Origin: Tubiluchus corallicola
Taxonomy: Eukaryota > Animalia > Priapulida
DNA: 64,000 bases
Direction: 5' to 3'
Assembly (NCBI GenBank): GCA_030141605.1
Contig: JAQGDQ010000026.1
Location: 558,001-622,000, forward strand
Of the stretch, positions 7,312 to 52,008 are shown in pieces (position 1 is the stretch's first letter; the number at the start of each line of letters is the position of its first letter). The position numbers were made by a program, and so were the translations under genes. The notes beneath the pieces are model-generated. The model saw only the letters and a program-made list of their open reading frames with translations, was not told the DNA's origin and ran no database searches.

Positions 7312-10300
7312 TAATTTTTTTTACAAAGTTGCAAACTAATAACAATGCAAATTGAAAATTAAACGCTTAGGATATGCTTGAGAAAAATGTGTTGCATCTA
7401 TGTACACCTAAGTGTATATACATGTACATTAGATATTCTAATACAGATCTTCCGTTTAAACGTGACAGGCATTACAAATCAATCAAATCCGCAAGTCTAA
7501 TCACATCGTTTAAATCTATACATGTTTTGCAATAGCTCGACCCATGTCAGCACAATGGTAGAAGAGTTTTTAACAAAAATACCTCTGTCTGAGTATGATG
7601 CATAGTAATGGATGCGCCTTTGATGAGGCATTTAATAACTGGTTTGGAACGGCAGATAACTAACTGACCAGTTAACCCAGTGTAAAAACCGGCACATCCC
7701 CAAGCTATAGCCACTTTTAACTACTTTTGCTTTCAGATTGTTCTAACCATGATGGATGATCTGACCAAACTGGCTATTATACCAGATGGCTATAATATCG
7801 CTTGTATTAGTAAAGCCGTAGCAAAACACCATAGAACGCCATTAAAGACCACTCCACGGTGAGTGTGCATCCTATAAACAGTGAGGAAGAAGAAAAGAAT
7901 GGCAAGCTCCAAAGACGGTCTGTGTAAATTTCTAACGCCTGTTATAAGGGCCCCTGTTAGGCATATCATTCTAAAGTAACAAATGCTTACAAAGAATTTA
8001 ATAGAAACAAAATACAGATAAAGAAGGAAGTCATTTACCAATTATCACCAATCATTGTTTGTACACTAACTGCATTATTCATTGGGAAAATTAAATCAAA
8101 ATCAGTAATTATATATTTAGTAATTAAATTTCATTTTAAAGCTAACAAACGAGGTAAATGTATAAAAGGCGTTTTCACAGTTTAGTTTCCTCTGAGTTTA
8201 TAATCTTCCTTAATACCTGATTCAGCAAAAGTAAAGCTGTTAACAGTGTTTAATTTCTTACTTGCACATTATTATGTAATATAATTATCCCATCGCACGT
8301 ACAGTACGCTGTGATACATTTCAGTTTCACATGTACATGTGTACTACAAAATTGCACTGAATCTGATTTAAAGTTCAGCAGGTACGATTTAGAGACCACA
8401 CATACAGCGGTATTACAGAAACTTCTAAACAAATCAGCAGTTTCTATCACTGAAATAAAACGGATAGGTGTTTGGTAAAAAATGAAACTAGGGAAATTAT
8501 TTTGGGTTACTCTGATTAGCTGCATCTATTGTATATAATACATTATTTTATCTCCCACGAGTCGCTGTGCTAATTATAATCGCATGAATACAATTACAAA
8601 CACCTGAAACACATTTTAGTTATAACTAACGCAAATGTCACAACTGATAGCGCACTTAGACACTTTATGTTACTAATTAGTAACTACAGATAACTTTCGC
8701 CCATGCAAGCGTAACCAGAAAAGTGCAACGCAACGTTAGGCAACAGTACGTGATATGTTATTAACAAATCTGTTATTTTCGGATATGTTATTAAAACCAT
8801 TTGAACCAATACGTACACACCGAGCACATGAAGCGCAATTCAAGCAAACAGCAGATAATAAATTTAATATGAATACTAAAAAAGCTACGTTACGATGTCC
8901 ATGAACTATGGTGCCTTTCAGTTCCAAATATGCGAGTTTTATGAACAGCTACCTTTGATTGTATACTTTTGCATTATTCATGTACGTGATTTGGCATAAT
9001 TACACTCCCTATGTACTTTTATGTATTGTAGCGCATTTATACATAATATTACGATATTGCGTGTTGATACAGTCATTTCCAAGAAATTATCATAATCATT
9101 ATAAAACTGCAATTATCACGGACCGCGTTACTTTTTAGCTTGTTTGAAGTAACGAAGATGCGCAATTATGACATACGTGCTTGAAAAACTTTATAATTAA
9201 TTTTACCTCTAATTCAAAAATAGTCGCAATAAGTTTTATAAAGTTTTTCAAGCACGTATGTCATAATTGGGCATCTTCGTTACTTCAAACAAGCTAAAAA
9301 GTAACACCTTCTTTTTCTCTCTGTAGAACTTATTCAAACATCTGGTTGTACAGCACAGAATTTTAGCTTTATCAATTCTATTGTAGCTGACACGCTGTAC
9401 TTGTTTATGAATCCCCACCCCTTTCCACCGCATTGCTATACTTCAGTAGTGTTAGCTGCCTGCAAGTGTGAATTGGCTAGAGCTTTGCATGCATGAGAAT
9501 GTCTGTTGTTGAAAGGGTACCCTGGAGCCTCTTTTGTGGCTGCTCCATGGATGGTAACACTACCCACATAGGCACAGTGAGTACAGTAATCGACCTACAC
9601 CAACTTTTGTATTTAGTCGCAGAAAAAGGAAATCCTGAATGGGAACCCAGAGTCTGTCCATTACAATCACACAGCACGCAGACAGTGTCTAATACCAAAA
9701 CCTGTAGTCATGCAAGAGCGAATAGTGGAGTCGTCCGAGCATACAATCCGGGCTAGATTACGGCTGTCTACGCATACAAACTACTTTTCCACACAAAATG
9801 CCTATTCGATTTGACTAGCCAGGTGTAGCTAACTGGACTCCCAAAGGAAGTTATTTCTACTTAGAATTAATTGTGCCTACCCATTAAGTGTTATCGGCAA
9901 TTGTAAAGAACGAGCGAGTGAAAACACACTAAATTCTACCATACCTGTCTTCACACACTAACTACACGCACTGTAGAACATTTCTTATGTGCTGTACTTA
10001 GCGGAATAAAGACTGGCCTTCAGCAATATTTGAGGTAGATTTATCAATCATGACTGGTTATTTGGCTCTGTACTAAATCCGTTTTTCAGGGCACGTCTAG
10101 TACAGAGAATTCGCAAGAGCGAATAAGCAATTCCGTAACCAAGAAATGTTTGCTCATAAGTAAGCTAGAATAAACGTCAGACTCGTGAATTACTGTTGTT
10201 TGTTGTCAATAGTGCGGATTTCCTGTAGTAAAGCTGTATGTATGTATGAAACTAAACAGGCTCAACGGTCTTAAATAAAAGCAGCAAATCACGTATGATA

Positions 10301-11256: not shown

Positions 11257-12907
11257 TTAGAGGTCGTCGCTTATGGAAAGACGACTGAAAATAGGTAGAC
11301 GCAGGCCTCTGCTCACATCCAGCGGTGACTCGATTGGGCTGTCTCTATCCGAATTAGTGCTGGAACTCACTGGTGAAGCTGGCGCATCCATCAGCAGCTC
11401 GTGATACACATCATCCGTGTTGCGAGGCTGGAATCGCTGGTTTCGGTTGCTGTCGTACACACTCCGGTTGTTGTTGTTGGTAGCAGTAAATGCAGAAGTG
11501 GACGTATTTCTTCCTGGGCTGAGCAATGAATCAGTCTGCGGGAATGTGAAGACATTATTCAAGTTGAAAGTGGCTGGCGAAAATACGGAATATTGATCGT
11601 CCTGATCGAAGAACGTCGGTGATACCGGACTGGTACTGAGACTTGATGTTGGTGAGTCGGCAACAGAACCTAAACTAAAGGCACGCATGGTGTTAGACAA
11701 AGACTTTGGACGCTCTGTAGGTCTGCCAATTGGTTGGTTAGCGTATTGCATGGAAGGTGCAGGAGTGGTCGGAGTAGGTGGTGGCGAGCGTTTCTCCTCC
11801 GGATTGTGGATGAAGTGGCAGCGAGGTCCATATGGGCAGAACCCAATTGTGTGGAATGTGCGGCAGAGTTCAGTCTTGTATTTTGGATGGCGAGATAGAT
11901 TTCTTAGCTCATGCATGCCATGTGCAAACTGACACTTGTCTCCATACTTGCACGTACCATTTTCCTCGAATGGCCTACACAATTCTGTCTTGTATCTGCT
12001 AGAGTTCGCCTGCGAAGCTTTAGCTTGGTTGCGATCACCGGGTTCACTGACAGCCCTGTCTAACTTCTTGTGGACCTCATTGCTGATCAGAGCTGAGGCA
12101 TTTCCCGACAATGGTGCTAGAAGACCTTTGTTAAGGCCAAGTTTGTCCTCAACAGGCTGGAAAGCGCAGGATGGTTGAGCACTAGCCGTGCGGCGTAGTT
12201 GAGCATGATGTTGTGGCTGTTGTTGCTGACTGCTGAAGGCAGACATGCCTGAGCCAAAATCTTGGTTGTTAAATGTCATAGGTGTCCCAACGGCTTTCCG
12301 TTGCTGTTGCTGCAGCAAGTTATTGGCATTCTAAAAGAGAAAAAATTTACAATTTACTTCATATGAAAGTTAAAAAGTCAAAACGTTTTTAAACAGAAAT
12401 CGCTTTAAACTATTGAAAGATTATAGTCATACAGCACAATTATCTTCGTTTTGACCATATTGGAATGCAGCATACAACGCAATGCAACAACGTTGCGCGC
12501 TGAGATGAACTTAGTAATGACGCAACTGTTAATGACTACAGTTATTTAAGGAGCTTAGCAACAAAGTTTTCTGACACTTCTGACTTAAGTAGCAGTTACT
12601 TAAGAAGTATAACTAAATTCAACCAGTATAAAAACAGTACTTTCCGACTCGAGTATAGAAAGGCGCAACTCGCATAATTTAGGAAACCAAAAAAATTTTA
12701 GTTTTTACTTTCGGTAAATTTTCGTTGAAGAAACAACTTAATGCAAGTAGCGAGAAGTTATGAAAACCGAAGGAGCTATTTACGTTCAATATAACTTAAA
12801 ATTACTTGCGCGTGTGTGGTAACAAAACGTACAGTTATCATACTCACATTTAATGCAAAAACATCGTCGACGTTGAAATAGCTCGGAGATAACAATCCAG
12901 TTGACAT
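11257..12907 (-). CDS. Tis11: Tis11/ZFP36-family (tristetraprolin-like, ZFP36L1/L2-type) ARE-binding mRNA decay protein, 2 exons, ~377 aa
   Basis: Exon 1 is 12907-12848 ([20 protein letters not shown], donor GTGAGT). Exon 2 is 12330-11257 (acceptor TTTTAG, phase 0). It has tandem CCCH fingers with RYKTELC/KYKTELC lead-ins and the C-terminal CNOT1-binding motif [12 protein letters not shown]. The short first exon plus single intron matches ZFP36-family architecture. Confidence 0.96.
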
Positions 12908-22900: not shown

Positions 22901-24006
22901 ATTAAGCGTTAAATTTGCGGAAAATAAATAAGAATAAATAAAAATGAAGAAATAACTCAAAATAAACAGTAAGATTTTGCTGTTTCTGACGTGGTCAGAA
23001 ACTGAAGATTTTGCAAACAATAGCTATAAAATTGAGCCTTAAAAATGAAGAGATCGTAGCTTTTTGTTTGAAAGTTATCATTTTCACCTTGCTTGAATAC
23101 ATAGGAAGTGCATTTCTCAATGAAACTTCAACATTTAACTGTTGGAATTGCCTAAAAAGCAGGCTTATTTCACTTTTTATTTTATCGGAAATATAATAAA
23201 TTATTTAACATGTACTGACGTTGTCAATTATTAATATTATTATTAAATAAACAAGGACAACGGATGCTGCCAGTACGGAAAACACCTCAATTCGTGACCT
23301 GTCTCTAGTGTCCTACTTGGGCAGCCTATGTACGACGCGTTCTATTTGGGCTATCCCATGTTCGCCAATTATTCTACTTTGGCTAGTGTCCTACACCGCT
23401 CCCAATACTTCTATTATTAGTATTACTGATATGATTATTTCTCGTGCAATGCACTCCATTTAACAACACTAACATGCTAAAACCTGTATTTGAAATATTT
23501 ATTAATAAATAATAGAATGCTAAAAGTACAATTTTTAACCGGACTTAGTCATTTTTTGTTACTCCTAAAACTCGTTTTTTTGAACTTTAACTGACCGCCA
23601 TTTCAAAACAAACTAATTATTTTACATCTGGTTTTTTTAATTAACTATATGCTCATAGCACTATCAAATGAGCACAGTTGTGGCTATGGTGGCGCGCTCT
23701 ACAATTTTCGTTCAGCCACCCTACTATAAAGTATAACTATAAGTATTACTAGTACAGAAGGCATTGTTAACGACTTTTTGCTGACAGTTGCGGCATTTCG
23801 TTAAGCGAGGACTTACGTGTGTGTGTACTTCAACTTCAAGTACTTATTTTTACTCGCTAAACTTCATTACCTGGAAACCTCATTAACTCAATATTCTTGC
23901 CCTCCTTTTTCAGAACATCTACGAGTTTCAAAGATTGTGTTGTTTTGCCACATCTGTCACATCCTTCAAAAACAATCAGTGCACCTCGCTTCAATGCTTG
24001 TTTCAT
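16923..24006 (-). CDS. DTYMK: Thymidylate kinase (dTMP kinase), 5 coding exons, 217 aa
   Basis: Exons 24006-23871, 20362-20254, 19745-19655, 19062-18874 and 17051-16923 are all GT-AG, phase-consistent and total 654 nt. Motifs: P-loop [56 protein letters not shown]. Confidence 0.96.
18143..18597. mobile_element. hAT-like MITE in DTYMK intron 4
   Basis: Identical 8-bp flanks ATTAAAAG (18135-18142 and 18598-18605), degenerate TIRs (CAGGGATGTGCCAGATCCAG / CTGGATCCGGTGCGTCGTTA) and internal GGATCC-type subterminal repeats. Confidence 0.65.
21466..23145. repeat. Composite Helentron/HINE-like repeat in DTYMK intron 1: ~170-bp direct repeats flanking a ~180-bp-unit tandem array
   Basis: TGTTTCTG(TG)ACGTGGTCAGAAACTGAAGATTTTGCAA... 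occurs at ~21466 and ~22981 and contains the hairpin GTTTCTGAC-GTG-GTCAGAAAC. Internal units (GACCTTTCATTTGAT...CCCCTATTTTGCCCC) repeat across ~21650-22350. Confidence 0.55.
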
Positions 24007-25447
24007 TTTAGTCTGTCTACAAAAATAAAAATTCAGCAAATCATTTAATTAACGCCAATTAACAATGATTGATAAAGCGGGATTAGATTAACAAAAAATA
24101 GCAAAATGAACCTTTAAAAATTCCGCTAAATAGGCGCAAACACTTTTGTATAAGCGCCTCCTAGGCTAGACTAGAAGATATATTCTATTGTTAATGCCCT
24201 TTTCTACGACTTCAACTGTCACACTAGAGACAGCTGCCGCAGAAAAAATGATAACCTTAAAAAACAAAACCTTGTAAATAAGACTAAACCGTTAAATTGG
24301 CTAAACGAAATAAATCTAAAATACTAATATTTATTTTTATACTTATATTATACATAAATGCATTGTATTTTGTTTTTTTAAATGTGACAAAACTGATTTT
24401 ATGAATTGAGGGTAATGGAGAGGATGACAATGATGACAGTGATTTAACACGGGTGTGCTCTGTTTATAGTAACAACAAACAAGATCCCTCATCACAACTG
24501 TAAGACAGATTACAAAAGTTGACATAACTTAAACAGTTTTTGCTTATACCTTTTTGGAAAGTCCTATCTGCCTAAAGGCCCTAAACACAATAATAAAAAA
24601 TGACTGTTCTTGGAAAATTATTTCAAAATAATAGGTCGCCATCAATTAAAGACAAAGTTTATGACCAAAGCCATTATTATCTTCAGCACTACCATAACAA
24701 TGGTGCATAGAGAAGCCAACCAGACTATTCACTTTGTTAGCGTGCATGAAACGATGCTACTGGTCGTTTTTTCTGATAAAACCCTGTAAGCAAGATCAGC
24801 AGCACATCTTTTTTTACCTTTATCTCAGTTTAAGATGTATATAAGTTACCTAATCTTTTAGATTATTATCACTTTCTTTGCCCTTTTATGTAAATGATGA
24901 TATCTATAGAAAAGTTAAAAGGCATGTTTTTAGTCTTTAACCCTGTATGATAAACTGTGTCTGCATAATGTAATTGCAATAGTTCTTACTCAAAATAATG
25001 CTTTTCTTTTCCTTTAATTCTTTTTTCTGTTTTTAATAAGTTAGTACAACGTATATTAAAATATATAGCAGGAATATTATCAGAAACATAAAAAATGCAA
25101 AATACTACACACACAAGTTAAAGTTAACAACAATTTATTCCTTAAAATATTACACAAATAAATTAACTATTAAAATTTATTTATGAAAAGACAAAGTAAT
25201 TGTTCGGAGAAATAGTGCTCTTAACTAATGTAGCTCAGCAAATAGTATAGGAACTCTATAGGAATTCACACCATAATATGATCTCTAATACCAAGCCATT
25301 ATCAAAATATTGCACAAAAAAATAAACTGTGATAACAAACAATTACAAAACAATTTACTTTTACAGACATTTTATTATACTCACAATGCCTAAAAATAAG
25401 CTTTATATGAATCAAAAAGCTAAATTTAAATAAGCAGTAAGTAAAAC

Positions 25448-25457
25448 TTTATTTATT
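25448..25457 (-). terminator. Polyadenylation signals of SelL
   Basis: Overlapping AATAAA hexamers on the minus strand (plus-strand TTTATTTATT), ~40 nt downstream of the SECIS. Confidence 0.6.
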
Positions 25458-25496
25458 TTATTACAATATATTTATCATATTACTGAACTTTTGCAA

Positions 25497-25575
25497 AACA
25501 AAACTAGAAAAACATCAGAATTTAGCAGTTGCAAGTACACTTTCAGCAAAATTCGTCATAATTTCTAGTTTTGTT
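25497..25575 (-). promoter_or_regulatory. SECIS element in SelL 3'UTR
   Basis: On the minus strand: 14-bp perfect helix I (AACAAAACTAGAAA/TTTCTAGTTTTGTT), ATGAC quartet arm (25559-25555), helix II GAATTTTGCTG/CTGCTAAATTC, unpaired AAA (25543-25541) 11 nt above the core, and 3' TGAT (25517-25514). It lies ~110 nt after the stop codon. Confidence 0.92.
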
Positions 25576-25684
25576 GTGAAAAACACAGTAATACTGCACA
25601 CCGCACTATAAATAAAAAAGCTTAGAAAATATCCACAAAGTCCTTGTGAAGTAGTCTCATGTATTGATTGAAGAGTGATACTGC

Positions 25685-48213
<22,529 letters not shown>

Positions 48214-51183: not shown

Positions 51184-52008
51184 TCAACTAGTTCTTATTT
51201 CAGGGTAAATAATACCTCTATGGGATGAACAAATACCAGGACCACTTTTACTCATAAAAACCGCATCAGCTTTATTATACAAATTTGCATTCAGTCTAGC
51301 GCGGTTCTGAGACCTTGTCGAAGTGTCAGAACCAATTCCAAAATTTTCCATCAATGCAATTCTAGACTGTGGACACATAGTAAACTTTAATCCTTTGTGA
51401 AAACATACCTGTATGGAGTACAAGTAATCAAATGCATTGCTGTCATCTAGAACACAAAGTACAACAGCATTAGTACCATACACTTCTTCAAGAGCATCAT
51501 TTATATCTTTTAAGCTATAGGTAATCTTGGTTGTATCTGTAGGTAGTATTTTACTAGCTGCAAGTGTTTTCTCAATCTGCAAATCAGAGTTCAGTTTAAG
51601 ACCTGCAGAAAAATAGTTTAATTCTCCTCTTAGGGAAGGCTCCGATGCTGCACATGTACCATGCTTGTCCCACTCGTGTTTCCAAAGAGAATCTACAGCA
51701 AGCTTGCTTAAATAGTTAGGCCAGTATATCTCCAAGTCCTCACGTATTGGGTCAAGTTTGCTAACGTCAAATGACCATGACTTGTTGCAATAAGTTGGCA
51801 ATTCTGTCCCAGTTATAGTTGGCCATAAACCATGAACAGTCCATGTATGTGTTTTCTTAGGAAAACTGCACGAATGGCCAGTAATGTTGTTTAAAATACA
51901 AACAGTTTGAGGCCAAAATTCAGCATACACAAGATAGTCCCAATTCACTCCATCAGCAATGTGTTGAACCAGAAGAAGGAGTACAACAAGAATGCTCAGG
52001 TTTTTCAT
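51184..52008 (-). CDS. RNASET2: Ribonuclease T2, intronless CDS, 274 aa
   Basis: Signal peptide; WDYLVYAEFWPQTVC; CAS I WTVHGLWP; CAS II LWKHEWDKHGTCA with both catalytic His; a splice acceptor (TTTTCTTCATATAG) 18 nt before the ATG. Confidence 0.95.
   Translation of the reverse strand: MKNLSILVVLLLLVQHIADGVNWDYLVYAEFWPQTVCILNNITGHSCSFPKKTHTWTVHGLWPTITGTELPTYCNKSWSFDVSKLDPIREDLEIYWPNYLSKLAVDSLWKHEWDKHGTCAASEPSLRGELNYFSAGLKLNSDLQIEKTLAASKILPTDTTKITYSLKDINDALEEVYGTNAVVLCVLDDSNAFDYLYSIQVCFHKGLKFTMCPQSRIALMENFGIGSDTSTRSQNRARLNANLYNKADAVFMSKSGPGICSSHRGIIYPEIRTS

Follow-up and report, generated by a model that had tools for sequence, protein, structure and literature searches.

Selenoprotein L (SelL/SELENOL) is said to have been described by Shchedrina et al. 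(2007, PNAS 104:13919). In the excerpts available of further papers, the protein is credited with a diselenide and with occurrence in aquatic organisms (PMC2397514), is present in five of six invertebrates (PMC3473315) and in Ciona (PMC2874816), and has its two selenocysteine (Sec) residues inserted with a single SECIS element (PMC3316567). The gene found here, on the minus strand of the window (the whole 64-kb stretch of DNA that was analysed), shares with known SelL the UxxU motif in an AhpC/TSA-type thioredoxin fold, the length of about 300 residues, the one SECIS in the 3′ UTR and the aquatic invertebrate host. It differs in that its host is probably related to priapulids, that three astacin genes are nested in its intron 6, that a Met replaces the Asp two residues past the second Sec, and that a strong hairpin is predicted after the second UGA. 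The bacterial SelL-related redox proteins (NCBIfam NF040769) have the same catalytic domain and motif; however, they lack an N-terminal extension and, instead of a 3′ UTR SECIS, have a small coding hairpin just past the motif.

We regard the hairpin at 25575-25497 as very probably the single 3′ UTR signal that would recode both UGA codons of this gene to Sec. The use of one SECIS for both UGAs is an arrangement already known in SelL, and knowledge of Sec decoding is unchanged by the gene as found. What it adds is one SelL gene, well supported and together with its SECIS, from an animal lineage for which sampling is poor; our search found no literature linking priapulids, selenoprotein and SECIS.

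Table 1. Features of the predicted SelL gene, its SECIS element and the nested genes (window positions)
Feature	Positions	Strand	Basis or remark
SelL exon 1	48114..48213	minus	ATG at 48213; joint supported by P0002
SelL exon 2	47807..47885	minus	gene model and P0002
SelL exon 3	47224..47277	minus	gene model and P0002
SelL exon 4	46718..46763	minus	gene model and P0002
SelL exon 5	45704..45943	minus	holds U-V-P-U; NF040769 positions 8-49, E 3e-10
Coding hairpin, 5′ arm	45711..45732	minus	exon 5, starts 4 nt past second UGA; predicted
Coding hairpin, 3′ arm	44919..44940	minus	exon 6; pairing requires intron 5 removal
SelL exon 6	44817..44942	minus	NF040769 positions 53-86, E 0.015; PF13911 E 0.005
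Intron 6	30267..44816	minus	14,550 nt; largest share of the 20 kb gap
Nested astacin gene, copy 3	40368..44097	plus	PF01400 E 4e-12
Nested astacin gene, copy 2	36294..38996	plus	PF01400 E 1e-23
Nested astacin gene, copy 1	31276..35452	plus	start codon to stop
SelL exon 7	30228..30266	minus	gene model and homologue alignment
SelL exon 8	29106..29204	minus	gene model and homologue alignment
SelL exon 9	27070..27177	minus	NF040769 positions 139-172, E 2e-6
SelL exon 10, coding part with TAA	25685..25696	minus	C-terminus in register with P0033; runs on as 3′ UTR
Eukaryotic SECIS	25497..25575	minus	Rfam match, fold, pair listing
Three overlapping AATAAA	25448..25462	minus	at 25462, 25457 and 25453-25448

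The SelL gene and its pair of UGA codons

The sequence identifies the gene as SelL; its two in-frame UGA codons, predicted to encode Sec, have two residues between them. The gene model runs from 48213 to 25685 in ten coding exons, separated by GT-AG introns throughout, and its 903 nt specify 300 residues. Apart from the terminal TAA, the frame contains no stops other than TGA at codons 159 and 162; these UGA codons (45748-45746 and 45739-45737) belong to a U-V-P-U motif. P0002, a 153-residue protein of a related organism that is 77% identical to exon 5 and ends just ahead of the first UGA, runs across exons 1 to 5 and thus supports the first four exon joints. The joints of exons 5 to 10 and the 3′ end were drawn from splice signals and homology only.

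The original prediction had called the gene SelL, and end-to-end alignment with homologues, exon matches to NF040769 and the U-V-P-U motif all argue for that name. Six of the eight long homologues align with the model at 25–31% identity over 258–303 columns (E 1e-32 to 2e-49). Full-length homology to a named SelL comes via P0095 (29% identity over 269 columns), whose cluster includes 'selenoprotein L [Biomphalaria glabrata]'; three of the ten protein clusters checked are named, and another of these contains an uncharacterised Priapulus caudatus protein cut at the motif. Exons 5, 6 and 9 match NF040769 (SelL_rel_redox) in order. Their scores, like those of four full-length homologues, all lie below the cut-off of 120, which in this bacterial model is set for the whole protein; P0002 has no match to it. 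Solved structures yielded distant thioredoxin-fold relatives only (best E 1e-4), and the UxxU lies at the redox site of this thioredoxin-like fold.

A profile-free HMMER search with P0002 returned 174 proteins at E ≤ 0.001, homologues longer than P0002 among them; a different search had yielded no longer ones among 574 candidates. The same RH.. motif ends 118 of the 150 homologues listed (query included), and gene callers hence cut the SelL family at the first UGA; three full-length homologues have W-x-P-W at the motif, as expected of a gene caller that reads TGA as W. Public snail and fish SelL models (P0095, P0154, P0125 and P0151) drop the motif region, avoiding the UGA codons.

A metagenome scan yielded 180 relatives, and 80 loci were retained. 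The motif was UxxC in 61 of them, UxxU in 15 and CxxU in one, with three unparsed, and all seven loci covering the whole protein had TGA-xx-xx-TGA. Eight loci (L001–L007 and L046) are eukaryote-type, a label inferred from the N-terminal extension and from the introns of L046. Among L008–L080, the bacterial SelL-related genes have in common a conserved small coding hairpin with a CAGU-type loop about 20–40 nt past the first UGA, which is likely the bacterial SECIS. In the gene described here, the codon after the Arg that follows the second Sec is an ATG (45733-45731, minus strand), one codon past the second UGA; the seven full-length loci have Asp or Ser at this residue. The ATG contributes two pairs to the coding-region hairpin discussed below and could serve for re-initiation after termination.

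The SECIS hairpin and its place in the predicted 3′ UTR

A SECIS is defined, in section 11 of PMC3473315 as excerpted, by an A before a non-Watson-Crick quartet, tandem G.A/A.G pairs, two helices and an apical AA, all of which the hairpin at 25575-25497 possesses. The original prediction had described an AUGA with an AAA at 11-nt spacing, a UGAC/UGAU quartet, a perfect lower helix of 14 bp and two U-U mismatches in helix II, and the pair listing reproduces each of these. The AUGA/UGAU core lies at 25559-25555 and 25517-25514 (minus strand), and the quartet reads U.U, G.A, A.G, C.U. All 14 pairs of helix I are Watson-Crick; helix II has 11 positions, namely nine standard pairs and the two U.U mismatches, and the apical AAA (25543-25541) follows 11 nt past the quartet and 12 past the AUGA. 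A weak apical mini-stem of 3 bp is present in the minimum-energy fold and absent from the centroid; in the usual nomenclature, we take the hairpin with this mini-stem to be a form 2 SECIS.

By both anatomy and covariance model, the hairpin is a canonical eukaryotic SECIS, as had been claimed. The covariance-model check that had been suggested was run with Rfam and gave a match to RF00031 (SECIS_1) at 25505-25567 on the minus strand with 35.8 bits, 0.8 bit over the gathering score of 35 (E 0.0019). No other match in the window passes gathering, and of the 11 matches with E ≤ 10 no other is to SECIS_1. The folding energy of the strand is -21.6 kcal/mol (z -4.44), a stability reached by none of 200 shuffles. 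Compared with SECIS_1, the animal AUGA_AA_GA type, the hairpin has the same core, spacing and apical AAA; it differs in that helix I is long and perfect, whereas helix II is weak and AU-rich with its two U.U mismatches. The upper stem is weak, at -4.2 kcal/mol; in four relatives it ranges from -10.3 to -14.7.

A loose SECIS pattern at its standard setting likewise had this hairpin as its sole site in the window, and relaxing it by one pair gave 15 sites. As shuffled 64-kb sequence contains 2.3 loose-pattern sites per window, the motif by itself is weak evidence; sites with a helix I of at least 10 bp were absent from all 60 shuffled windows. No second SECIS was found in the window by Rfam or pattern, in agreement with the original prediction, and an atypical one could escape both.

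The element lies in the predicted 3′ UTR on the sense strand, 125 nt past the TAA stop (25687-25685). A cluster of AATAAA, ending with that at 25453-25448, follows 35–50 nt 3′ of the SECIS and is likely the poly(A) signal; the position between stop and AATAAA given in the original prediction hence holds. Its distance of 20 kb between UGAs and SECIS is right for genomic DNA and does not hold for the spliced message: modelled introns downstream of the UGAs total 19,635 nt, and in the spliced model the AUGA comes 551 nt after the first UGA and 542 nt after the second. According to this model, almost all of the 20 kb gap is predicted intron. Intron 6 is so large because three tandem astacin genes sit inside it. 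Two sequencing runs gave no coverage of the SECIS exon, a result that carries no information on expression.

Between 25625 and 25443 (minus strand), the 3′ UTR could prolong the SECIS stem far downward, and the AATAAA cluster could pair with a U-rich stretch upstream. This fold (245 nt, z -2.68, with 1 of 200 shuffles as stable) may be a by-product of the SECIS and of AU richness.

A single SECIS as the probable signal for both Sec codons

The relatives permit a comparison of SECIS numbers. L004, L005, L006 and L007 have exactly one SECIS-pattern match each, 20–118 nt past the stop and 449–523 nt past the second UGA; the sequences of L001 and L003 break off 41 nt and 33 nt past the stop, respectively. 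In Rfam scans of L001–L007, SECIS_1 matched L004–L006 at 28–30 bits, below gathering, and gave no match at E ≤ 10 in L002 or L007; with MAFFT, five SECIS elements were not alignable in register. L002 and L046 represent one UxxU gene (L002 1161-3628; L046 3352-6294) without a canonical SECIS in the 2.5–2.9 kb past its apparent stop, although a looser scan of L046 revealed one weak site 1.7 kb out. Its SECIS may be atypical, or a last intron may have been left unspliced. Because L005 and L006 are closely related, one SECIS was found in three of four independent informative genes, none in one, and two in none of them.

The original prediction implied that one SECIS for two Sec codons would be surprising. 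Such surprise is unwarranted, since a single SECIS is already stated for SelL in the excerpted text of PMC3316567 and the spliced distance here resembles that of the relatives; the arrangement is thus ordinary. Splicing would set the SECIS about 550 nt behind the UGAs. In eukaryotic Sec decoding, the SECIS core is the binding site of SECISBP2, which in turn brings in eEFSec and Sec-tRNA, and an element in the 3′ UTR is able to serve several UGAs (PMC5727441, as excerpted); by family knowledge the G.A/A.G core of the present hairpin would likewise bind SECISBP2. Ribosomes do not unfold an element in the 3′ UTR, and hence the SECIS, the single one that Rfam and pattern offer in 64 kb, could act twice, three codons apart. 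The product would be a 300-residue protein whose two Sec residues, as in the family, are expected to form a diselenide. Failed recoding at either UGA would leave a fragment of 158 or 161 residues and, given five introns downstream of the UGAs, probably lead to nonsense-mediated decay. A candidate hairpin formed by splicing past the second UGA may raise recoding efficiency.

Three other explanations were weighed. Part of the mRNA pool might be without the SECIS if exon 9 were read through to a stop at 27043, with polyadenylation in intron 9 and termination at the first UGA. Exon 9 indeed stays open for eight codons to a TAG, and AATAAA occurs at 26437 and 26355. However, with a minus-strand AATAAA background of 1.25 per kb, two in the 1.37 kb of intron 9 are expected and thus unremarkable, and the donor of this intron is good and its acceptor rich in pyrimidines, so that we consider such messages improbable. 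Alternatively, the hairpin might be an AU-rich stem that arose by chance, or both UGAs might be genuine stops in a pseudogene. The GC content of 28.5% at 24001-26000 and the loose-pattern counts in shuffled windows speak for chance; against this stand the full covariance-model match on the correct strand and at the correct place, the TGA pair conserved in all seven full-length relatives and the frame kept intact across ten exons, which together make this explanation very hard to uphold. That the SECIS belongs to another gene is the least credible of the three and close to inconceivable. Three other genes do lie between UGAs and SECIS, and a gene that we take to be thymidylate kinase-like starts about 1.5 kb further (exons 24010-20250, same strand, about 1.4 kb past the SelL poly(A) signal). 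The astacin genes, however, are on the opposite strand and the kinase-like exons are 3′ of the SECIS; moreover, of the six open TGA-NN-NN-TGA contexts that the window contains, a single one is inside a recognisable protein.

The hairpin after the second UGA and the surroundings of the gene

The reading of one 3′ UTR SECIS serving both UGAs would be extended, and not replaced, if double insertion also depended on a hairpin that spans exons 5 and 6 and slows the ribosome as a Sec redefinition element. In SELENON and SELENOP, elements of this kind enhance Sec insertion; as described in excerpts of PMC8704476 and PMC5727441, those of SELENON, SELENOT and SELENOP are likewise stable coding-region stem-loops a few nt past the UGA-Sec. 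In a segment of 60 nt past the second UGA that was fixed before folding, we observed a stem-loop of 18 pairs just 3′ of the codon, with -20.5 kcal/mol and z about -4.4 to -4.6. Unspliced sequence at the same place folds at -4.1 only. None of 500 synonymous recodings was as stable, and the segment ranks 1 of 28 in the coding sequence, although the +138 segment of the same gene had a similar score in a 30-shuffle scan.

The relatives are less favourable to this extension. Recodings as stable as the same segment numbered 11 (L001), 5 (L002), 9 (L004), 216 (L005) and 197 (L007) of 500 each, i.e., no excess stability was seen in L005 and L007, and the segments ranked 5/28, 2/29, 3/29, 7/28 and 13/28, respectively. 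With the discovery sequence left out, a rank test on these five gave a combined p of about 0.06. The 18 hairpin pairs were in register at only 7 (L001), 6 (L002), 9 (L004), 4 (L005) and 10 (L007) positions, slid controls being no worse, and RNAalifold returned no consensus fold for the post-UGA segment in relatives. Known redefinition elements are conserved and mutation-tested, at least in the excerpts cited above, whereas the candidate is not conserved pair for pair in these five distant relatives and spans a splice junction. It is also out of the bacterial SECIS register: 52 dereplicated bacterial-type loci fold on pair diagonal 61 versus 86 here, and the different diagonal led us to reject a retained bacterial SECIS as its origin. 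A contribution of the hairpin to double insertion is thus possible but on balance unlikely. We are a little more hesitant still about the specific proposal of a second SelL cis element, in which a hairpin built by intron 5 splicing would let one SECIS fire twice in three codons. No redefinition element in SelL was found in the literature as judged by titles and the start of abstracts. If functional, the hairpin would make the gene a compact natural test of how two Sec are inserted at a distance of three codons and of recoding signals that depend on splicing.

Each of the three astacin copies nested in intron 6 has a signal-peptide-like start, the zinc motif HELMHAAGFYH and a stop. These multi-exon copies are alike in introns as well as exons (63–98%, repeat families), which points to fairly recent duplication. 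In copy 2, a weak donor (GTTTGT) ends the exon after the zinc motif. We found no literature on an astacin gene nested on the opposite strand of an intron. Intron 6 also contains short TTCGAA-rich elements with related ends (39820-39460 and 32660-32310), which look like miniature inverted-repeat transposons.

Outside the gene, an intronless ribonuclease T2 gene (51184-52005, minus strand; PF00445 E 6e-50) shares the strand of SelL and lies about 3 kb upstream of it. No tRNA genes were found in the window. At 11257-12330 (minus strand), an exon encodes tandem CCCH zinc fingers of the ZFP36/TIS11 type. Among the matches listed, its best named one is from Priapulus caudatus, with 307 bits versus 217 for the next named. 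In a tree of 31 rows, i.e., the window exon and 30 rows chosen from the 120 matches listed, it groups with Priapulus caudatus at 100/100. From this one gene under sparse sampling, the host is likely a priapulid or a close relative of one. Finally, a long near-perfect inverted repeat at 9154-9278, which scores as MIR2606 far below gathering, is likely a small transposon-like palindrome.
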